Origin: Thermoleophilia bacterium
Lineage (GTDB): Bacteria > Actinomycetota > Thermoleophilia > RBG-16-64-13
Assembly (NCBI GenBank): GCA_040768135.1
Contig: JAXGNF010000002.1
Coordinates: forward strand, 18,435-82,434
DNA length: 64,000 bases
Reading direction: 5' to 3'
The notes beneath the pieces were generated by a model, which was given only the letters and a program-made list of their open reading frames with translations, had not been told where the DNA came from and searched no databases. The position numbers and the translations under genes are program-made. Position 1 is the first letter of the stretch. The number at the start of each line of letters is the position of its first letter. This document shows positions 40,077 through 49,884 of this stretch, piece by piece.

Positions 40077-41849
40077 CTACGGCACAGACAGCCGGTAGCC
40101 ACGAGCCAGGAGCTTCGCACGCACCGCCTGGTAGGACACGTCGTGCGGATCGACCCCCGACTCTGCAGCTTCGATGACGATCATCGCTGCGGCCCCGCCC
40201 ATATTGGCCCGAGTGTGCTCCATGCGGATGGCAGAACTGTAAGCCATGCAGTCGGTGGACACTGCTGTTGACATCAGGAGCGCCGGATGACCGGCGGCCA
40301 TCAACGCCTTCATGGGTACGTAGACATACCGCGTGGTCTCGATGTGGTTGAGCGGCGAGGAGTCGTGCCGATCGTACTCACAGTAGCAACCGATGGCGAC
40401 CGGTTCGACTGATGACCCGGCCCGCAGCGCGACGGCCGTGTAGGTGTCAAGCCCTACGATACGGGGACCCTCGCGCACGTATAGTTTCTGTGGTATGGAG
40501 TCGATCCCCACACGCGGGTACCCATTCTCCTGCAGGTAGCGGACCCGATTGATCACCCATTCGAGCACGCGCTTCCGAATGTCCCCTCGCTTCTCCGGTT
40601 GGAACACCCACTGGTACGAGAGACCGATGTCGGGCCAGTCGCTCCAGGTCTCGTTGAGTTCTCGTTTGCCGTTCGGCAACACCGCGATCTGCATGCTCCA
40701 ACTGCCACCGAAGGCGGCGAGGTTCTTCGCTGCGAAAGTCGTCCCCGCATAAGAGGCCGGGTTGTAGTTGGGATGAACCAGCGAGGCCACGCGGGGCGCG
40801 CGACCCGACGTATACACTTTCAGTGTCAACAGAGCCGAAAACCGCTGAGGAGCGGTCGCATAACTGTCTACGATACTCGGATAGGGGGGTTTGTTACCCG
40901 TCTGATCGTTAAAGACGTCTTCGGCGCTTCCCACCCGATAGTCGGCCCCCAGCATGCGGGCCAGGTCGGCCTCGACACTCGCGTCGATGAAGAAGCGGGT
41001 GCGAAGACGGGTAAGACCGCCCCCTTCTACCTCGATGTCAACGTAGCGCTCGTCACCTTGATCGTTGGCTGCAACAAGGTTGGCTGAATAGAAAAGGACG
41101 TTGGGTGCCGCCGCCCCCCTGACGTACGACCAGAGCAGCTGCGCAGCGATCTGAGGCTCATAAACAAAACGACCGCCGGTGGTGAACGCCCGCCGGCCCT
41201 GCTGAGCGTAATACTTGATAACCGCCTGCCGCCATTCACCGTAGAACCCACCGGAGACGTCACTGATGTTGCGGGCGTCCTCCACACTGAGGCCTTGAGT
41301 CAGCGGGGTCTCAAGAAGGTTGCCGCACGAGATGAGTGCGACCCGGAGGTGGGGAGCGCCCAGCGCCAGCTCGCGCACAGCCGCCAAACCAGAGGTCTGA
41401 GTGGCGTAGACAACCACATCGACATCCTCCGTCGTAGCGCCCGTGGGGAGAGTCGTGGTCGTTGATTCCGGCAAGGCGGTCGACTCCGGGGCAGTAGTCG
41501 ACACCGGCGAGGAAGTCGGTCCCGAGGCGGTCGTCGAGGGGGAATCGACCGGCGCCGGAACTGTTTCGGTGGTGGACGGATGCACCCATCTGCCCACGCT
41601 GACCTGCCCTTCAGGCACACCAGCAGCCCCGATCGGTTGGGCCCCGACGGCGAAAGCCGCGGCAAAGCCCGGCCCGGCGGGGGTCGATTGCGTGAACTCG
41701 GTCTCAGCAAAGACGGGAGACTCGGCGGTCCCCAAACCTATCGCGAGGAAGCAGAGGACGACTCCCACGACCAACAGCAGGACCACCAGACGCATCCATA
41801 TCCTACTCTGGCCCCACAGCCGGGTCCCTCTAGATATGACCTTCCTCAC
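40077..41849 (-). CDS. Membrane-anchored FAD-dependent-oxidoreductase-like protein (PF12831-like) with a degenerate dinucleotide-binding motif and a Ser/Thr/Pro-rich linker. The likely start is the Met of MRLVVLLL near 41795.
   Basis: 590 aa; the first beta-strand reads DVVVYATQTSGLAAV where GxGxxG is expected; one N-terminal TM. Confidence 0.55.
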   Translation of the reverse strand: MRKVISRGTRLWGQSRIWMRLVVLLLVVGVVLCFLAIGLGTAESPVFAETEFTQSTPAGPGFAAAFAVGAQPIGAAGVPEGQVSVGRWVHPSTTETVPAPVDSPSTTASGPTSSPVSTTAPESTALPESTTTTLPTGATTEDVDVVVYATQTSGLAAVRELALGAPHLRVALISCGNLLETPLTQGLSVEDARNISDVSGGFYGEWRQAVIKYYAQQGRRAFTTGGRFVYEPQIAAQLLWSYVRGAAAPNVLFYSANLVAANDQGDERYVDIEVEGGGLTRLRTRFFIDASVEADLARMLGADYRVGSAEDVFNDQTGNKPPYPSIVDSYATAPQRFSALLTLKVYTSGRAPRVASLVHPNYNPASYAGTTFAAKNLAAFGGSWSMQIAVLPNGKRELNETWSDWPDIGLSYQWVFQPEKRGDIRKRVLEWVINRVRYLQENGYPRVGIDSIPQKLYVREGPRIVGLDTYTAVALRAGSSVEPVAIGCYCEYDRHDSSPLNHIETTRYVYVPMKALMAAGHPALLMSTAVSTDCMAYSSAIRMEHTRANMGGAAAMIVIEAAESGVDPHDVSYQAVRAKLLARGYRLSVP

Positions 41850-42294
41850 GCAGTCTCCTCACGTCGGCCAGCACCTTCGCAGCATGTCCCTTTGCCTTGA
41901 CCCGTTGATAGGCTAACAGAATCGTCCCGTCCGTGCCGATCAGGACCGTATCCCGCTCGTGCGGACCGGACGTATCGCTCTTAAGTGTCCCGTAGGCCGC
42001 GCCGATGCTACGGTCTTCATCGTCGACCAAGTCGAACTTCAGGTCGTACTTCTCTTTGAACCTCTCGAGCCGTGCCGCCGGGTCCACCGACGTCCCGACC
42101 ACCGTCACCCCCAGTTCTTTGAATTCAGGAAGTAGTTGGTTGAACTCAACCGCCTCCGTCGTTCAGCCTGGGGTCATCGCCCGCGGGAAGAAGTAAAGTA
42201 CTACCGGTCCCGACTCCAACAGGTGCCCAAGAGCGACTGCCCCCTCGGCCCGCGGCACTGTGAAAATCGGCGCCTTCTCACCTATCCCCAGCAT
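41830..42294 (-). CDS. bcp: Bcp/PrxQ-type peroxiredoxin with an in-frame TGA (42163-42165) at the peroxidatic-Cys position; candidate selenocysteine-containing 1-Sec peroxiredoxin, 154 codons
   Basis: Translation from the ATG at 42294 reads MLGIGEKAPIFTVPRAEGAVALGHLLESGPVVLYFFPRAMTPG, then TGA, then TTEAVEFNQLLPEFKELG, continuing in frame into the 92-aa track ORF. AGGAGAGGAGGG Shine-Dalgarno upstream. E. coli Bcp (from memory) has YFYPKAMTPGCT. Confidence 0.75.
42128..42157 (-). promoter_or_regulatory. Candidate bacterial SECIS hairpin (mRNA GGAGGCGGUUGAGUUCAACCAACUACUUCC) starting 6 nt after the UGA
   Basis: An apical GGUUG..CAACC stem with a small AGUU loop. GGUUG sits at +12 to +16 from the UGA, the same offset as in the E. 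coli fdhF SECIS as recalled from memory. An outer GGAGG/CUUCC stem encloses it. Confidence 0.5.
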
Positions 42295-42310
42295 CCCGGA
42301 CCCTCCTCTC

Positions 42311-42616
42311 CTAGTCGGTCATCCCCCGTGACTCTATGGGCCCATAGGCCGATTCGTACTTCCTTACGTTGTCGGCAAGAGCCTCGACGATGCGCTTCAT
42401 GTGCGCGGGGTTGGTCACCACCCGGGCGACCACCTGTCCGTTCCCCCCTACGACCATGGCGAAATCCATGATGAACTCCGAGGGAGAATGCTGGACCATC
42501 ATACTGTTGGCGTACACCCCGCCCGCCACTTGCTCGGACATCCGCAGCTGAAGATCGGGCCGCTTATGGCCGTTACCATCGCCCGGGCCCTCCTGCATGC
42601 CTTCCCTTTTCGCCAT
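42311..42616 (-). CDS. DUF3467-like small protein
   Basis: 101 aa; YANSMMVQHSPSEFIMDF...VVARVVTNPAHMKRIVEAL resembles DUF3467, recalled from memory. Confidence 0.6.
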   Translation of the reverse strand: MAKREGMQEGPGDGNGHKRPDLQLRMSEQVAGGVYANSMMVQHSPSEFIMDFAMVVGGNGQVVARVVTNPAHMKRIVEALADNVRKYESAYGPIESRGMTD

Positions 42617-42712: not shown

Positions 42713-44224
42713 TCAGGCCTCTCCTCGGGCGCGCTCGAAGCGGCGCGCCCCTTCCACGACGGTGAGTCTCACCCGCCCGGTGAGTGTCTCGCCCAGGAAG
42801 GCACAGTTACGACCTTTGCTGCGCAGACTCGCAGGAGTTACTTCCCAGGTCTCGCCCAGATCGACCACACAGAGGTCGGCCGAGGCCCCCACAGTCAGCC
42901 GCGGCTCAGCTAAGCCCAGGACGCGACACGGCCCTCCAGACAGAGCTTCCACCAGACGGCCGAGCGATAGCGCACCGGTCAGCACGAGGCCGGTGTAAAG
43001 AGCGGCGAAGGCGGTCTCCAGACCGGTAGTCCCGCAGAGGGCGTCTTCGATCGGCACCTCTTTCTCCTGCGGTGCATGGGGAGCGTGATCGGTACCGACA
43101 CAGTCTATGGTCCCGTCGGCAAGAGCAGCGACCAGAGCCTCCCGATCGGCGGCCGATCGGAGAGGGGGATTGACCTTGAGGTTCTGATCGAAGCTGGTCA
43201 GGCGATCGTCGCTCAACAGCAGGTGATGGGGCGTCACCTCTGCGGTAACGGGCAACCCTTCCTCTTTGGCGCAGCGCATCAGGCGCACGCTATCAGCCGC
43301 CGAGAGGTGTTGAAAATGAGCAACAGGGGTGAACCGGCGGGCGCCTGCAGCCGAGTCGTCTCTCAGACCGAGGCCGCCGACGGTTACCCCTGCCGGCCCG
43401 GGCAGAGCGGTAGCGCCTGTCATCACTTCACCCGTGGGCATACTATTTGGAAGTATTCGCGCCGCCGACAAGCGCCTTTCTTCAGCGTGGACGTAACGCA
43501 CCATCTCGAGGTCGCGGGCCAAGGGACCAGACTCCGAAACCGCGGGTATCCCCCGCAGTCCCAGACGAGCGCTCCATCTGCCCTCGTGCATGACCCCGTC
43601 TACCGAGAGCGTCCTGTTCTCGAGGTGAAGGAGCAGGGGTCTACCCATCCCCCGCGCGTATCGCAGGGCATGGAGCAGCAGATCGGCATCGAACACCGGT
43701 TGGCCGTCATCCGAGAACGCCACCACTCCCGCGTCGGCCAACTCCCACATCTCGGCCAGCTCCTCGCCTCTCAGGCCTTTGCTGACCGCGCCCACCTGGC
43801 CGATGCGGACATGCGCATCCACACCGGCCTGGTCAAGCACCCAAGCGGCCACGGGCCCACAATCGACCACTGGGTCGGTGTTGGCCATCGCCACAACCGC
43901 TACGTAACCTCCCGCGGCGGCGGCCAACGATCCCGAAAGAAGATCTTCTTTGTACTCATATCCCGGGGTACGAAGATGAACATGCGGGTCGACGAAACCG
44001 GGGAACACCCAGCAGCCGGCCAGATCGTCAAGTTTCTCCACCCCCGGTGGCCCGGCCACCCCTTCTCCGAGGGCCGCGATCGAACCGTCCTCGATCAAGA
44101 GATCGCCTTCGAGATCCACTCCATGCTGAGGATCGAAGAGATGTACGCCGGGGAGGAGAAAACGTTCGGGGAGCGCCCGCCTGCAGACTAGCTTGGGCGC
44201 GGAGGGACGAGGGCTCGTGTCCAT
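42713..44224 (-). CDS. pyrC: Dihydroorotase (cyclic amidohydrolase). The track start (GTG at 44245) lies inside the PyrR motif; the likely start is the ATG at 44224.
   Basis: The DPHVHLR metal-binding motif and an amidohydrolase fold; an insertion of about 100 aa makes it long at 503 aa. Confidence 0.85.
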   Translation of the reverse strand: MDTSPRPSAPKLVCRRALPERFLLPGVHLFDPQHGVDLEGDLLIEDGSIAALGEGVAGPPGVEKLDDLAGCWVFPGFVDPHVHLRTPGYEYKEDLLSGSLAAAAGGYVAVVAMANTDPVVDCGPVAAWVLDQAGVDAHVRIGQVGAVSKGLRGEELAEMWELADAGVVAFSDDGQPVFDADLLLHALRYARGMGRPLLLHLENRTLSVDGVMHEGRWSARLGLRGIPAVSESGPLARDLEMVRYVHAEERRLSAARILPNSMPTGEVMTGATALPGPAGVTVGGLGLRDDSAAGARRFTPVAHFQHLSAADSVRLMRCAKEEGLPVTAEVTPHHLLLSDDRLTSFDQNLKVNPPLRSAADREALVAALADGTIDCVGTDHAPHAPQEKEVPIEDALCGTTGLETAFAALYTGLVLTGALSLGRLVEALSGGPCRVLGLAEPRLTVGASADLCVVDLGETWEVTPASLRSKGRNCAFLGETLTGRVRLTVVEGARRFERARGEA

Positions 44225-44231
44225 CCGGGTT

Positions 44232-44261
44232 CCTTTCGGTCTCACGGGACTCGTTTAAAGG
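44232..44261 (-). promoter_or_regulatory. PyrR-binding RNA motif (CCUUUAAACGAGUCCCGUGAGACCGAAAGG) directly upstream of the pyrC ATG; its 3-prime strand contains the Shine-Dalgarno sequence
   Basis: Near-identical to the pyrB and carB copies; AAAGGAACCCGG AUG. Confidence 0.6.
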
Positions 44262-44349: not shown

Positions 44350-45117
44350 TTAGACCGTCGACCTCCCTTGAGCGGAAGGCTCGTAGTCGAGCCAGGTCGG
44401 CAGAGACGAAGAAGCCGCGCGGAGCCTAGCCCTATGATCGCGCCACCCCGGATCACACGCCTCCAGTAGTGCCCAGAAGCGCGGTGAGTGGTTCATCTCG
44501 CGCGTGTGGCAGAGCTCGTGGAGCAGCACATGGTCGACCACCTCAGGCGACAGAAAGAGCAGGCGCGCGTTCAGGGATATTGTCTTTCGGCGAGAACAAC
44601 TGGCCCAGCGCGTCCGTTGCTGCCGGACGGCCACCGATCCATAGTCAAAGCCGTGCCGACGCGCGAGCAAATCCAGACGAGGCCCAAGAGCCATCCGCGC
44701 CTTCCGGCTTAGCCAGCGACACAGTGCGTCTTTGCCTGCCGACGGGTCTTCGATCCCGCCGCTCACCACTAGGAGTCCTCGGGGGCGCTCACGCGCTGCT
44801 GCGCGGCAAGCCCGGCATCCAGAGCCGGCGGGCGCCGGGACGGCCGGCACATACTCGACATCCCACTCCTCGTCAATGGCGGCCAGAAGGATCTTTTCTG
44901 GGAGCCTAGGTGGCTCAATCTGCAACCGTCTGCGCCGATCTTCCATACGGGAGGCCGTCCGGGCGATCCAGGCCCGTCTACTCTCGAGCACTTCGGGAAG
45001 CCTGCGGTGATCGAAGTCCTGGGGGACCACGACTTCCAGCCCTCGCTCCACCGTCATGACGAGGCGCACGCGCCGGGCGCGTGCGCTCACCCGCACCGAG
45101 TACTCCCGGTCAACCAA
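44350..45117 (-). CDS. YgjP-like / M48-related metal-dependent hydrolase (DUF45)
   Basis: 255 aa with the C-terminal HELCHTREMNHSPRFW HExxH-type motif. Confidence 0.7.
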   Translation of the reverse strand: MVDREYSVRVSARARRVRLVMTVERGLEVVVPQDFDHRRLPEVLESRRAWIARTASRMEDRRRRLQIEPPRLPEKILLAAIDEEWDVEYVPAVPAPAGSGCRACRAAARERPRGLLVVSGGIEDPSAGKDALCRWLSRKARMALGPRLDLLARRHGFDYGSVAVRQQRTRWASCSRRKTISLNARLLFLSPEVVDHVLLHELCHTREMNHSPRFWALLEACDPGWRDHRARLRAASSSLPTWLDYEPSAQGRSTV

Positions 45118-45187: not shown

Positions 45188-48100
45188 CTAGTGCTCCTCG
45201 GTCTCATCAAAGTCCCGCCCCGCCGGCAGGTTCGGACCGCTGCTCTCCACGGTGACTCCGCGGGCTCCGGTCGCAGCCAGGACCTCCTCGTCCACCACTC
45301 CGGGCTCGAACGGACAAGCCTCGCTGTAAACCATCTCCGCCTGCTGTTTAAGGATCTGCCACCGGGTACACACATGCTTCTGCGCTTTGTCCCACAGCAG
45401 CTCAGCTGCCTCGGGGTAGGCCTTCTTAAGCATGTTGTACCGGTTCTCCTTGGGAACGAATTCCTCCACCGGCAGCGACATCTCTTTGGAGTCGATCTGC
45501 AGAGGGTTCTTGCCCTGCGCCGCCAGGCGCGGGTCGAACCGATAGCAGATCCAAGAGCCGGACTGCACCGCCATCTTCTGATGCTCATAGCCCCGGCTCA
45601 TGTCAAAGCCCATACTGATGCAGTGGCTGTAGGCGATGATCAGACTGGGGCCGTCGTAGGACTCGGCCTCCACAAAGGCGCGCACCGTCTGGGAGTCGCT
45701 GTATCCCATGGCCACTTGAGCCACGTAGACGTTGCCGTAGGTCATGGCGATAGACCCCAGGTCTTTCTTACCGGTTGTCTTCCCTCCGGCGGCGAACAGA
45801 GCCACCGATCCCATCGGTGTGGCCTTAGACATCTGGCCGCCCGTATTCGAGTACATCTGCGTATTCAGCACCAGCAAGTTGATGTTGCGCTGGGAGGCGA
45901 GAACGTGGTCCAGTCCTCCGTAACCGATGTCAAAAGCCCATCCATCGCCGCCGACGCCCCAGACGCTCTTCTTGACCAGGTAGTCGGCGACGGCCAGGAG
46001 CCGGCCGTACCGGGGGTCGTCTCCATTGCCCGCTAGAGCCGTTTCGATCTTCACTTTCAGTTCGGCCACCCGAGCCCGTTGCGCCGCGATCTCAGCCTCG
46101 TCCTCCTGCTTGGACGCCAGAAGAGCCTCCGCCAGATCAGCGCCGATGACCTCGCGCAACTCTGCGACCAGTTCGCGGGCGAACTCGGAGTGCTTGTCCA
46201 CGGTCAGCCGCAGACCGAAGCTGAACTCAGCGGCGTCCTCGAACAACGAGTTGTTCCAAGCGGGGCCGCGGCCGTCCCTGTTCCTGGAGTAGGGCGTGGT
46301 GGGTAGATTGCCCCCGTAAATGCTTGAACACCCGGTGGCATTGCCGATGAGCAATCGATCGCCCACCAACTGGGTGAGAAGCTTGAGATAAGGTGTCTCT
46401 CCACACCCGGCACATGCTCCCGGATATTCGAACAGGGGCCGCAACAACTGGCTACCTTTGACCGTGTTGACCCGCACTTCGGTGCGGTCGGGGTCATGCA
46501 GGCGGAGGAAGAAGAGGTAGTTCTGCCGTTCCTGTTCGCGCAGCGGCGGCTGGAAGGCCATGTTGATAGCATGCCGTTCCGGATCGGCTTTGTCTCTACC
46601 CGGGCAGATCTGTACGCAGGCTCCGCAACCGGTGCAATCCTCCACCGCCACCTGCACGGTCCACTTCTTACCGGCGTATTCCTTCCCTTTAGCGTCTACC
46701 GATTTGAAAGTGGGTGGAGCCCCCTCCAAAGCCTCCGGGTCGTACAGCTTCGTACGGATACAGGCGTGCGGACAGTGCAGCGAACACTTGCCACACTGGA
46801 TACACAACTCCGGTTCCCACACCGGTACCTCCAAAGCGATGTTGCGCTTCTCCCAGCGGGTAGTGGCGACCGGCCAGACCCCGTCGTCGGGGATCTTGCT
46901 CACCGGCAGGCTGTCGCCCTCGCCGGCCATGATGCGGGCGGTGACCTCCTGCACGAACTCAGGCGCTTCTGCAGGCACCAGCTTGGGCTTGCGCCGCGTA
47001 CTCGTCACCGCCGCCGGCACCTCGATACGGTGCAAATTGGCGATGGCTTGGTCGACGGCGTTGTAGTTCATCTGCACGACCTTCTCGCCTCGTTTGCCGT
47101 AGGTCGTTTCGATGGCCTTCTTGATAGCCGTGACCGCCTGTTCGGGCGGGATGATGTTAGACAGGTAGAAGAAGCAGGTCTGCATGATGGTGTTGATACG
47201 CCCCCCCATACCGGTCTCTTTGGCGACTTGGTAGGCGTTGATGGCGTAGACCTTCAGCCCGAGCTTGATTATCCAGTCCTGAGTCTCATACGGGAGTCTG
47301 TCCCAGACCTCTTCGGCGGGAAAAGGAGCGTTGAGCAGGAAGATGCCTCCCGGGACGGCCGCAGCCAGAGTCCTGTATCTCTCCACAAAAGCCCATACGT
47401 GGCAGGCGATGAAGTCGGCTCTATTCAGTAAGTAGGCCGAACGGATAGGTTGAGGGCCGAAGCGTAAATGGCTGACGGTGAGCACCCCGGCTTTCTTGGA
47501 GTCGTACACGAAATAGCCTTGGACATAATTCTCAGTGTCTTCTCCGATGATCTTGATCGAGTTCTTGTTGGCACCCACCGTGCCGTCACTACCAAGACCG
47601 TAGAAAAGGGCCCGGTACACGTTCTCGGGTTCGGTGCTGAAGGTCGGGTCGTACTCCAGGCTGGTGTAGGTGACGTCGTCATCGATGCCCAACGTGAAGT
47701 GGTTCTTGGGTTGCGGCTTGTTGAGCTCGTCGAATACGGCCTTGACCATGGCCGGAGTGAACTCCTTGCTCGAAAGGCCGTAGCGGCCCCCGATGACCTT
47801 CGCATCGAGACCCACCTCAGCCACCGCATTGACCACGTCGAGGTATAGAGGTTCACCGGCGGCTCCCGGCTCCTTGGTCCGGTCGAGAACCCCGATCAGC
47901 TTCGTCGTTTTGGGGAGGGCAGCCGCAAAATGCGCGACGCTGAAGGGTCGGTACAGTCTCACCTTCAGCACTCCCACCTTCTCGCCCCTCGCGGTCAGAT
48001 AGTCCACAGTCTCGTGAACGGTCTCCGCTCCCGAACCCATGAGCACAAGCACGCGTTCGGCTTCCGGGGAGCCCACATAGTCGAACAGGTGATAACTACG

Positions 48101-48862
48101 GCCCGTGAGTTCAGCGAAGGCGTCCATATACTCTTGGACGATCCCTGGGGTCGCGAGATAGTACTTGTTGACGCTCTCCCTCCCCTGGAAGTACACATCG
48201 GGGTTCTGGCTCGTGCCGCGGATGGTGGGGCGGTCGGGACTCATGGCCCGTTCACGTACAACCTGCACGAGGTTCTCGTCGACCATCGCTCGAAGCACAT
48301 CGTCTCCCAGGAGTTCGAACTTCTGCACCTCATGAGAAGTACGGAACCCGTCACAGAAATGAATGAAGGGCACCCGGGACTTCAGCGTCGCTGCGGTTCC
48401 GATGAGGGCCAGGTCGTGGGCTTCTTGCACCGAATTCGAAGCCAGAAGGGCGAACCCGGTCTGCCTCACAGCCATGACATCCTGGTGGTCGCCGAAGATG
48501 CTGAGCGCCTGAGCGGCAATCGACCGAGCCGTCACATGCCAGCAGGTGGGAGTCAACTCACCCGCGATCTTGTACATCGTGGGGATCATAAGGAGGAGAC
48601 CCTGACTGGCTGTGAAAGTGGTGCTGAGCGAACCCGCCTGCAGAGCTCCATGGACGGCCGCAGCCGCCCCGCCTTCCGATTGCATTTCGACCACCACGGG
48701 AACCGTACCCCAGAGGTTCTTCTGGCCGGCTGCGCTCCAAGCGTCTGCATGTTCGGCGATGGGACTTGAGGGGGTAATCGGGTAGATGGCGATTACTTCG
48801 TTCAGCCTATACGCAACGTGGGCGATGGCTTCGGTGCCATCCATCACTGCCATGTTCTTCAC
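45188..48862 (-). CDS. nifJ: Pyruvate:ferredoxin (flavodoxin) oxidoreductase, single-polypeptide PFOR
   Basis: 1224 aa; the N-terminus MDGTEAIAHVAYRLNEVIAIYPITPSS, two 4Fe-4S ferredoxin motifs (CIQCGKCSLHCP and CTGCGACVQICP) and a TPP domain. Confidence 0.9.
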   Translation of the reverse strand: MKNMAVMDGTEAIAHVAYRLNEVIAIYPITPSSPIAEHADAWSAAGQKNLWGTVPVVVEMQSEGGAAAAVHGALQAGSLSTTFTASQGLLLMIPTMYKIAGELTPTCWHVTARSIAAQALSIFGDHQDVMAVRQTGFALLASNSVQEAHDLALIGTAATLKSRVPFIHFCDGFRTSHEVQKFELLGDDVLRAMVDENLVQVVRERAMSPDRPTIRGTSQNPDVYFQGRESVNKYYLATPGIVQEYMDAFAELTGRSYHLFDYVGSPEAERVLVLMGSGAETVHETVDYLTARGEKVGVLKVRLYRPFSVAHFAAALPKTTKLIGVLDRTKEPGAAGEPLYLDVVNAVAEVGLDAKVIGGRYGLSSKEFTPAMVKAVFDELNKPQPKNHFTLGIDDDVTYTSLEYDPTFSTEPENVYRALFYGLGSDGTVGANKNSIKIIGEDTENYVQGYFVYDSKKAGVLTVSHLRFGPQPIRSAYLLNRADFIACHVWAFVERYRTLAAAVPGGIFLLNAPFPAEEVWDRLPYETQDWIIKLGLKVYAINAYQVAKETGMGGRINTIMQTCFFYLSNIIPPEQAVTAIKKAIETTYGKRGEKVVQMNYNAVDQAIANLHRIEVPAAVTSTRRKPKLVPAEAPEFVQEVTARIMAGEGDSLPVSKIPDDGVWPVATTRWEKRNIALEVPVWEPELCIQCGKCSLHCPHACIRTKLYDPEALEGAPPTFKSVDAKGKEYAGKKWTVQVAVEDCTGCGACVQICPGRDKADPERHAINMAFQPPLREQERQNYLFFLRLHDPDRTEVRVNTVKGSQLLRPLFEYPGACAGCGETPYLKLLTQLVGDRLLIGNATGCSSIYGGNLPTTPYSRNRDGRGPAWNNSLFEDAAEFSFGLRLTVDKHSEFARELVAELREVIGADLAEALLASKQEDEAEIAAQRARVAELKVKIETALAGNGDDPRYGRLLAVADYLVKKSVWGVGGDGWAFDIGYGGLDHVLASQRNINLLVLNTQMYSNTGGQMSKATPMGSVALFAAGGKTTGKKDLGSIAMTYGNVYVAQVAMGYSDSQTVRAFVEAESYDGPSLIIAYSHCISMGFDMSRGYEHQKMAVQSGSWICYRFDPRLAAQGKNPLQIDSKEMSLPVEEFVPKENRYNMLKKAYPEAAELLWDKAQKHVCTRWQILKQQAEMVYSEACPFEPGVVDEEVLAATGARGVTVESSGPNLPAGRDFDETEEH

Positions 48863-48963: not shown

Positions 48964-49884
48964 TCACGCGGCGGACTCCTCGCTGAGGCTCCCGGCCAGG
49001 CACCGGTACAAAATGGCCATTCTCACGGCCAGTCCCGATTCTACTTGATGAAGAATCAGGGAACGTTCGTCGTCGGCCAAGTCGGCCGATATCTCCACTC
49101 CCCGGTTGATCGGGCCCGGGTGCATCACCCTTTGTCCCGGCTTGACCCGGTAGGGCGACAGGCCCCAGATCCGGCTGTACTCGCGCAGGGAGGGCACGGG
49201 CGGCACTTTTCCTTTCGCCCGCTCCAATTGCATGCGCAGGAGATAGATGGTGTCCACCTCCGCAAGCGCCTCAAGATCATGGTAGACGGGCACCTCCCAA
49301 TACTCGATACCGGGGGGCATAAGAGTAGGGGGACCCACCAGTCGCACATCGATGCCCATCTTGCGAAAGCCAAAAAGGTCGGAGCGGGCCACTCGGCTGC
49401 GCAGGATATCTCCGACAATGGCCACCTTGAGCCCCGTCAACTCGCCATAAACCCGCCGCAGACTGTAGAGATCGAGCAGACATTGGGTGGGATGTTCGCC
49501 CGTCCCATCCCCCGCATTCACCACCGAGGCATTGGTGTATCGAGTGGCCATCCGTGAGGCCCCAACCCGGGGATGACGCATCACGATGATATCGGGCCGG
49601 TAGCTCTCCAGGGTCAGGATGGTGTCCTTGAGGCTTTCTCCTTTGGACACACTCGACGACGATTCTTTGATGTTGATTACATCGGCCGACAGGCGCTTGC
49701 CTGCCAGTTCAAAAGACGCCTGCGTCCTCGTCGAAGGCTCCATGAAAACATTGACGACGGTACGCCCCCTGAGGGTGGGGACTTTCTTGATAGAGCGCGA
49801 AGCAACCTCTAGGAAGCCGTCACTGAGCTGAAAGAGATCATCAATATCGGATGCGGTGAGATCGTCGATCGAGATGAGATGCAT
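48964..49884 (-). CDS. pyrB: Aspartate carbamoyltransferase catalytic subunit
   Basis: The STRTQASFE and HPxQ motifs; 306 aa. Confidence 0.9.
   Translation of the reverse strand: MHLISIDDLTASDIDDLFQLSDGFLEVASRSIKKVPTLRGRTVVNVFMEPSTRTQASFELAGKRLSADVINIKESSSSVSKGESLKDTILTLESYRPDIIVMRHPRVGASRMATRYTNASVVNAGDGTGEHPTQCLLDLYSLRRVYGELTGLKVAIVGDILRSRVARSDLFGFRKMGIDVRLVGPPTLMPPGIEYWEVPVYHDLEALAEVDTIYLLRMQLERAKGKVPPVPSLREYSRIWGLSPYRVKPGQRVMHPGPINRGVEISADLADDERSLILHQVESGLAVRMAILYRCLAGSLSEESAA

Follow-up and report, generated by a model that had tools for sequence, protein, structure and literature searches.

The window analyzed in this study, a 64,000-nucleotide stretch from a Thermoleophilia bacterium (NCBI assembly GCA_040768135.1, contig JAXGNF010000002.1), contains on its minus strand, at 42294-41830, a peroxiredoxin (Prx) gene with an in-frame TGA codon at the site of the catalytic cysteine. 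The region is one intact gene, and it is neither a pseudogene nor a sequencing error. Judged from its sequence, the product is a Bcp/PrxQ-type peroxiredoxin of a divergent branch. In the explanation that we consider very probable, the full-length enzyme carries selenocysteine (Sec) 44 as its peroxidatic residue, inserted via SelB. We infer Sec at position 44, with strong support, from the conservation of the TGA codon, the selection acting on both sides of it, and a covarying hairpin downstream. The step from UGA read-through and a selected hairpin to Sec insertion via SelB is taken because this is the established bacterial system and because Sec-containing peroxiredoxins provide a precedent.

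The frame opens with an ATG at 42294-42292 and runs through 43 sense codons, the TGA at 42165-42163, 110 further sense codons, and a TAG at 41832-41830. The complete read-through gene (41830-42294, minus strand) thus encodes 154 residues, as read from the sequence, its translation, and the Pfam, NCBIfam, and Protein Data Bank (PDB) matches. The N-terminal coding part (42166-42294, minus strand) reads MLGIGEKAPIFTVPRAEGAVALGHLLESGPVVLYFFPRAMTPG (MLGIG...YFFPRAMTPG), and for gene finders it is a separate 43-aa open reading frame (ORF). After the TGA the frame continues as TTEAVEFNQLLPEFKELGVTVVG. The C-terminal coding part (41833-42162, minus strand) begins with TTEAVEFNQLLPEFKELGVTVVGTSVD and ends with EEGHI before the TAG. 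A Shine-Dalgarno-like sequence, AGGAGAGGAGGG (42301-42312, minus strand, found by reading the sequence), lies 6 nt 5' of the ATG and overlaps the TAG of the upstream DUF3467 gene. The sequence-only reading had described a 92-aa fragment starting at a GTG, an upstream ATG with a Shine-Dalgarno sequence, and a frame passing through the TGA into the fragment, and it had expected annotation as a truncated protein. All of this was borne out. The ORF list contains the 92-aa GTG-initiated ORF (41830-42108, minus strand) and also the separate 43-aa ORF (42163-42294), and the annotation keeps only fragments of the C-terminal part. In all relatives with gene calls, the gene is split between a 43-aa ORF and a "redoxin" fragment of 85-109 aa.

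Family searches were run on the 154-residue product with Cys written at the stop. Pfam AhpC-TSA (PF00578) matched residues 4-125, spanning the TGA, with an E-value of 3.1e-29 and 101.9 bits (cutoff 26). The best NCBIfam matches were Bcp (NF006960, 9.2e-26) and PrxQ. Fourteen solved Bcp/Prx chains matched at E <= 1e-10; PDB entry 5enu matched residues 5-147 at 4.5e-25, and Xanthomonas campestris Bcp entries (3gkk, 5iph, and others) align too. The YFYPKDxTPGCTTE segment of the Bcp structures aligns with YFFPRAMTPG-[TGA]-TTE, and their peroxidatic Cys falls on the TGA. The TGA (42163-42165, minus strand) is therefore placed on the peroxidatic Cys of the PxxxTxxC motif, present here as P37-R-A-M-T41-P-G-U44, and is the proposed Sec44 codon. 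In comparison with the solved Bcp (X. campestris, 5enu), the context YF(F/Y)P(R/K)xxTPG-C/U-TTE is identical and ER(D/S)T is conserved, whereas the present gene has UGA for the peroxidatic Cys and Val at +5 and scores below the Bcp equivalog cutoff. E113, R114, and T116 of the C-terminal part (E113-R114-x-T116, the catalytic Arg region) are invariant in the homologue alignment and align to the ER(S)T of the Bcp structures.

In many Bcp proteins the resolving Cys is located at +5 from the peroxidatic Cys. Position +5 from the TGA is Val49 in the present protein, which has no Cys anywhere. Both the location of the TGA on the catalytic Cys and the Val in place of the resolving Cys had been anticipated from the letters of the sequence, and the structure alignments and the translation uphold them. 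None of the main-clade Sec forms has another Cys, and a second Cys occurs in only two full-length Cys homologues (P0007 and P0009). At +5, Cys is present in the distant Sec forms L140 and L155. Bcp and PrxQ are the best-matching families, yet the scores stay below the equivalog cutoffs (90.6 versus 140 bits for Bcp NF006960, and 81.4 versus 260 for Deinococcus PrxQ NF053650); for this reason the protein is designated "Bcp/PrxQ-type" and not an equivalog, as a divergent branch. With the PrxU equivalog (NF040737, profile length 233 residues) it scored 32.1 bits against a cutoff of 270.

A stop at this site would also be seen if a normal Cys-Bcp gene had become a nonsense pseudogene or had been misread through a sequencing or assembly error. 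Standard annotation indeed gives fragments, such as the 101-aa P0044 with the NCBI name "redoxin domain-containing protein," and one relative (L176) has a second stop. The distribution of the TGA makes such an explanation extremely improbable. P0042, an 85-aa fragment 99% identical to the window, is encoded in six independent assemblies or sequencing runs, all with the same TGA and the same neighbors. Because these six assemblies of the same organism all carry the TGA, sequencing error is excluded. A further 20 distinct orthologous gene sequences from uncultured Actinomycetota carry the TGA at the same syntenic locus, and the differing samples and identities of 58-75% exclude one erroneous shared template. 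The TGA is found at the same codon in loci L161-L180. Contig CAYUSF010000119.1 of assembly GCA_964447185.1 has an identical gene, and metagenome-assembled genomes with the TGA include JAJFUK01, MELN01, JAAYJE01, CAWDXC01, CAWFJE01, and JAXGXJ01. The 17 non-redundant full-length Sec forms all consist of a start codon (ATG in 16, GTG in one), 43 codons, TGA, 109-110 codons, and a stop, and none contains a further stop or a frameshift.

The homologue search was evaluated on the best 120 clusters. Forty-one of these are roughly full length (137-176 aa) and have Cys at the site except for P0014; 78 are fragments of 85-109 aa that begin 2 to 26 codons past the site, pieces of the kind that gene finders yield at an in-frame stop. 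Among the truncated clusters with DNA examined, TGA was present at the site in nine of nine. In scans of genome and metagenome collections, the site codon was TGA in 13 of 15 close relatives (58-75% identity) and TGC and TGT in the other two. TGA was also found in four distant loci with ~40% identity (L128, L140, L155, and L158). The remaining 138 Bcp genes had TGC or TGT, so that 140 Cys-codon loci stand against 17 TGA loci altogether. The sequence-only reading had suggested aligning orthologues and had held that Cys codons in all close relatives, together with an unconserved hairpin, would mean a nonsense pseudogene. The alignment gave TGA in most close relatives and Cys codons in other orthologues, and both the TGA and the hairpin are conserved.

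P0014 (L173:562-1026, Joint Genome Institute (JGI) sample 3300078499) has Trp at the site in the database protein FFPRALTSGWTTEAVEF, but the DNA has TGA; the Trp arose because the JGI gene call translated TGA as Trp. Presumably, JGI applied a TGA=Trp code to the L173 contig, giving a full-length but wrong database protein. This translation would suit a genome-wide reassignment of TGA to a sense codon (Trp or Gly), an explanation whose probability is close to nil. TGA is the commonest ordinary stop in the window, terminating 26 of 48 well-supported genes, which indicates the standard genetic code without reassignment. In addition, carB, the pyruvate:ferredoxin oxidoreductase (PFOR) gene, and SMC match their family profiles end to end, and the homologues have Cys at the site, not Trp or Gly.

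Selection was examined by the Nei-Gojobori method on 20 non-redundant Sec-form genes (190 pairs). The median ratio of nonsynonymous to synonymous changes (dN/dS) was 0.16 for the 43-codon part preceding the TGA and 0.18 for the part following it, with synonymous differences near saturation (pS about 0.6). The similar values indicate that the two halves are both translated, under an equal degree of constraint. Such purifying selection before and after the TGA excludes a pseudogene and argues against a product ending at the TGA. A split gene deserves consideration at this point: translation would stop at the TGA to give a 43-residue peptide, and the C-terminal part would either be made from an internal start, as a noncatalytic or two-piece thioredoxin-fold protein, or not be made. 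Gene finders call exactly a 43-aa ORF and an 85-109 aa ORF, and purifying selection on both pieces is also expected of a two-piece protein. Nevertheless, we consider the split gene very unlikely. Beyond the TGA the sequences share no start codon: even the best position has one in just 10 of 17, and the earliest possible start is codon 46, 54, 63, or 65 depending on the sequence, which argues against separate translation of the C-terminal part. The stop coincides with the catalytic residue instead of separating domains, and it is crossed by the alignments to Pfam and PDB entries. Neither piece has the peroxidatic residue, though T41 and R114 are conserved. A split gene would also leave unexplained the hairpin at SECIS (selenocysteine insertion sequence) distance described below.

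The proposed SECIS core, a putative SelB-binding element supported by covariation, is a mini-hairpin GGUUG-AGUU-CAACC (42138-42151, minus strand), with its 5' arm at 42151-42147, its loop at 42146-42143, and its 3' arm at 42142-42138. In an alignment of 21 distinct sequences, gapless from the UGA, the conserved stem is separated from the UGA by an 11-nt spacer (ACGACGGAGGC, 42152-42162, minus strand). The 5-bp helix formed by columns 15-19 with 24-28 (GGUUG/CAACC) is paired in 105 of 105 cells with none broken, and the AGUU loop is invariant in all 21 sequences. In three of the five pairs both partners have changed (L085 and L087, G-C to C-G; L085, G-C to A-U; L173, U-A to C-G), and in L005 another pair went from U-A to U-G. 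No more than one in 500 column shuffles attained the observed number of pairs or cells with both-sided changes, or the covariation score. Shifted registers were only 21-56% paired, and RNAalifold predicted exactly the GGUUG/CAACC helix and nothing else.

The codon usage of this segment is also unusual. Codons 48-53 (GCG GUU GAG UUC AAC CAA) have the lowest synonymous diversity of any 6-codon stretch in the gene (0.15 versus a mean of 0.51 elsewhere), and Val49 is the GC-poor GTT in 15 of 16 sequences, whereas Val is otherwise encoded mostly by GTG or GTC in these genes. Full pairing in this register was seen in just 2 of 140 Cys-form Bcp genes, which mostly form one or two pairs, compared with 13 of 13 close Sec forms. 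The covariation supports a hairpin at the functional distance downstream of the UGA.

The sequence-only reading had proposed a larger fold, GGAGG-C-GGUUG(AGUU)CAACC-AACUA-CUUCC, with the GGUUG starting at +12. The fold can form, and the GGUUG does start at the 12th nucleotide after the UGA. Its 5-bp apical stem with AGUU is the conserved part. Its lower stem (42128-42157, minus strand; GGAGG 42157-42153 with CUUCC 42132-42128) can form but is unconserved and was rejected: 76% of its cells are paired, no compensatory change was found, and pair 11-36 is broken in 13 of 21 sequences. An alternative with an 8-nt loop, the minimum free energy (MFE) fold of the window sequence, has a helix 89.5% paired but broken in the covarying sequences, and the 4-nt loop was preferred. 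The hairpin at 42138-42151 is nearly palindromic, and its plus-strand reading also has a TGA with conserved flanks (GGTTGAACTCAACC); this near-palindrome is the reason for a spurious "conserved TGA" match (L003|-0|3436) in the screen for further selenoproteins mentioned below.

In Escherichia coli, the SECIS upper stem-loop comprises 17 nt (nucleotides 15-31) at 11 nt from the UGA, and its critical positions are the bulged U17 and the loop bases G23 and U24 (PMC8659212). The minimal SECIS element of E. coli fdhF is ATCGGTTGCAGGTCTGCACC (PMC10945757). Like the fdhF SECIS (GGUUGCAGGUCUGCACC, 17-nt upper stem-loop), the present hairpin is within the coding sequence. Both stems begin at nucleotide 15, 11 nt after the UGA, with GGUUG, so that the distance from the UGA matches that of fdhF (PMC8659212). 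Both have G-U in the apical loop (AGUU here), an E. coli-type feature that may not be what SelB recognizes in Actinomycetota. They differ in size: the present element has 5 bp and a 4-nt loop (14 nt) and no bulged U, whereas that of fdhF has 17 nt with the bulged U17. In addition, no conserved lower stem extends back to the UGA here.

Several observations weigh against Sec insertion through this hairpin. The hairpin is small, with a tetraloop closed by 5 bp, and has no counterpart of the bulged U important in E. coli fdhF. Part of its conservation overlaps the conserved amino acids AVEFN, and the covariation rests on four changed cells from three sequences. The single-sequence fold is not significant (MFE -13.4 kcal/mol, z = -0.57; 49 of 200 shuffles fold as well). 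No Rfam family matched at gathering thresholds on the whole window or at E <= 10 on 42000-42320. One locus, L176:410-874 (NCBI GCA_040961595.1, 1.7-kb contig), has an extra in-frame stop in its N-terminal part (GPVVL*FFPRAMTGG-U) and is either a decaying copy or a sequencing error. The 64-kb window contains no tRNA gene, no tRNA-Sec, and no selA, selB, or selD, and a tRNA-Sec search of the flanks of 19 loci (17 TGA-carrying and two Cys-form) found none. A tblastn search of 1.95 Mb with E. coli SelA, SelB, and SelD probes found no SelA/B/D-like ORFs; its only two matches were weak, both in unrelated Cys-form loci. The absence of Sec machinery is weak evidence because the coverage, 64 kb plus 1-20 kb per relative, is a few per cent of a genome. 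Finally, a screen of the window and 15 Sec-clade loci for TGA codons whose flanks are conserved against TGA or Cys codons found no second selenoprotein. Only the Prx site was clean in this screen (U 30, C 26). The other screen candidates were rejected as Arg/Pro/Ser-rich off-frame or antisense translations of conserved genes. A window scan for other split genes based on G+C content at third codon positions was likewise discarded, with too many off-frame false positives in 62% G+C sequence.

Recoding through an unusually small signal was also considered. The UGA would be recoded with a 5-bp stem, an invariant AGUU, no bulged U, and no lower stem, either via a SelB mode unlike that of E. coli or Moorella or by Sec-independent read-through (SelB or near-cognate Cys) in genomes without part of the canonical machinery. 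We regard this as unlikely. If true, minimal or alternative recoding of UGA would have a natural model in this widespread clade of Actinomycetota.

It is also conceivable that this UGA and hairpin direct the insertion of a residue other than Sec, namely Cys via SelB with a tRNA(Sec)-like tRNA-Cys, or Trp or Cys by hairpin-stimulated near-cognate read-through. The sequence evidence indicates UGA read-through and not which residue enters, and the Sec machinery was not found in the window or the flanks scanned. Even so, insertion of such a residue appears quite improbable. TGC or TGT would suffice for Cys, as several lineages have switched in this way, and that 21 distinct orthologous sequences have retained a costly UGA and hairpin speaks for an advantage that Cys lacks. 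Trp at the peroxidatic position would inactivate the enzyme, yet the active-site residues are under purifying selection. Furthermore, the tRNA-Cys route reportedly accompanies canonical Sec systems and does not replace them, which counts against it here.

For Sec insertion via SelB, we propose the following course of events. When the ribosome reaches the UGA (42165-42163), the hairpin 11 nt downstream would be positioned at the mRNA entrance and would bind SelB carrying Sec-tRNA(Sec). Sec would be inserted in place of termination, and 110 more codons would be translated. In the enzyme, the selenolate would reduce peroxide and become a selenenic acid. An external thiol, probably of a thioredoxin-type reductant, would then restore the selenolate. 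Because the protein has no resolving Cys and no other Cys, it should follow a 1-Cys/1-Sec mechanism and act as a "1-Sec" peroxidase recycled by an external thiol.

The Cys forms of the gene offer a view of the switch between the two residues. P0011 (Cys form, L181) occupies the same syntenic place as the Sec forms, and the same gene order around both identifies them as orthologues. Four Cys loci were compared at the hairpin. L182:58-522 (P0002) has TGC, is nested among the Sec forms, and keeps all five pairs, its hairpin being identical to the Sec consensus GGTTGagttCAACC. L002:459-920, a close Cys relative with TGC, also keeps five of five pairs, one of them changed on both sides. The more remote Cys orthologue L008 (TGT) retains four of the five hairpin pairs, and L181 (TGT), of the large derived "MTGGC" Cys clade, retains three. 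This pattern is the one expected if a SECIS turns into a decaying relic after Sec-to-Cys conversion, and L182 and L002 look like recent conversions with a relic SECIS. In a neighbor-joining tree, which is approximate because the proteins are short, the Sec forms make up a grade in which a few Cys forms are nested, and one clade of Cys forms is derived. The topology points to several Sec/Cys switches. Sample ERZ25039527 holds organisms of the Sec form (L169, contig_47414) and the Cys form (L181, contig_15962) with the same gene neighborhood; thus, the Sec and Cys states coexist in one habitat.

A distant group of Bcp genes with TGA (~40% identity) was observed in JGI and other metagenome contigs, with the site codons at L128:3698, L155:1533, L140:3398, and L158:3611. 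L140/L158 and L155 keep a Cys five residues after the site (U-x4-C). In L128 and L155, an unrelated stem rich in G+C, CGCGG-GUU-CCGCG, is found at nearly the same offset. The stem of L140 and L158 is longer and has the UGA as its first bases (UGAACGC...GCGUUCA). From their sequences, these stems resemble separate versions of one type of signal.

The window is a piece of core chromosome from a bacterium with 62% G+C. Among its genes are ftsY, smc, rnc, plsX, rpoD, coaBC, pyrD, carB, fmt, arcC, GTP-PEPCK, and fba, as well as PFOR, pyrB, pyrC, pyrR, tal, tkt, rluD, lspA, ftsZ, ftsQ, and murB. The relatives are metagenome-assembled genomes of uncultured Actinomycetota, labeled Actinomycetes, Thermoleophilia, Gaiellales, or Actinobacteria RBG_16_64_13; digesters and bioreactors are the source of many of them. 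Their gene order is pyrB, PFOR, YgjP-like, pyrC, sometimes carA, DUF3467 (in most loci), and Prx. The upstream DUF3467 gene (42311-42616, minus strand, 101 aa) is separated from the Prx gene by a 17-nt gap, and the two are probably in the same operon. DUF3467 (PF11950) is found upstream of Prx in L162-L166, L169, and L176-L180; it was not called in L167 and L170-L172, in which carA is adjacent. Downstream is an FAD-dependent oxidoreductase gene (40077-41849, minus strand), whose longest ORF, with a putative start, overlaps the Prx stop by 20 nt. Its family, PF12831, is the downstream neighbor in L161, L162, L169, L178, and L179, and the protein is probably membrane anchored or secreted. An NCBIfam search found no match for the DUF3467 or the downstream oxidoreductase protein. 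The DUF3467 protein, the Sec-Prx, and the FAD oxidoreductase may constitute a functional unit. Farther upstream, pyrB (48964-49884) and pyrC (42713-44245), both on the minus strand, are separated by two genes, for a 1224-aa PFOR (45188-48862) and a YgjP-like metallopeptidase (44350-45117). The relatives share this arrangement, and in some of them the pyrB-pyrC region additionally contains an OsmC gene and carA.

Sec-containing peroxiredoxins are an established group. "Prx" is a verified selenoprotein family (PF00578, TxxU) with a conserved PxxxTxxU motif (2026 review, PMC13188914). Experimental knowledge of the family dates back to its prototype, the PrxU protein of Eubacterium acidaminophilum (Sohling et al. 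2001, cited in PMC13188914). Zhang et al. (2006) reported 12 Sec-peroxiredoxins and five Cys-to-Sec events and described Actinobacteria as selenoprotein-rich (PMC1794560). The present protein belongs to the same Pfam family as PrxU and has the same PxxxTxxU motif, with Sec, here predicted, in place of the peroxidatic Cys. It also shares with the Sec-peroxiredoxin family the occurrence of Cys orthologues and repeated Cys/Sec switches (PMC1794560 for the family). Unlike PrxU, it is short (154 residues), of the Bcp/PrxQ type, and without a resolving Cys, and it is not a PrxU equivalog. The clade differs from the known Sec-peroxiredoxins in that it comes from uncultured Actinomycetota and is represented in databases only by truncated fragments.

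Sec-peroxiredoxins have been known since 2001 and PxxxTxxU is textbook knowledge, so the general picture of bacterial selenoproteins is unchanged. What is new is evidently a large, systematically misannotated Bcp/PrxQ-type branch of Sec-peroxiredoxins, considered a new branch because its members are not PrxU equivalogs and are below the Bcp equivalog cutoff. The natural series of Sec forms, recent Cys forms with the hairpin, and old Cys forms with a decayed hairpin is useful for studying Sec/Cys exchange and SECIS decay. The compact 14-nt candidate SECIS could interest selenoprotein engineers. As a consequence of the fragmented annotation, the antioxidant capacity and selenium dependence of anaerobic Actinomycetota in digesters, bioreactors, and sediments are under-reported.

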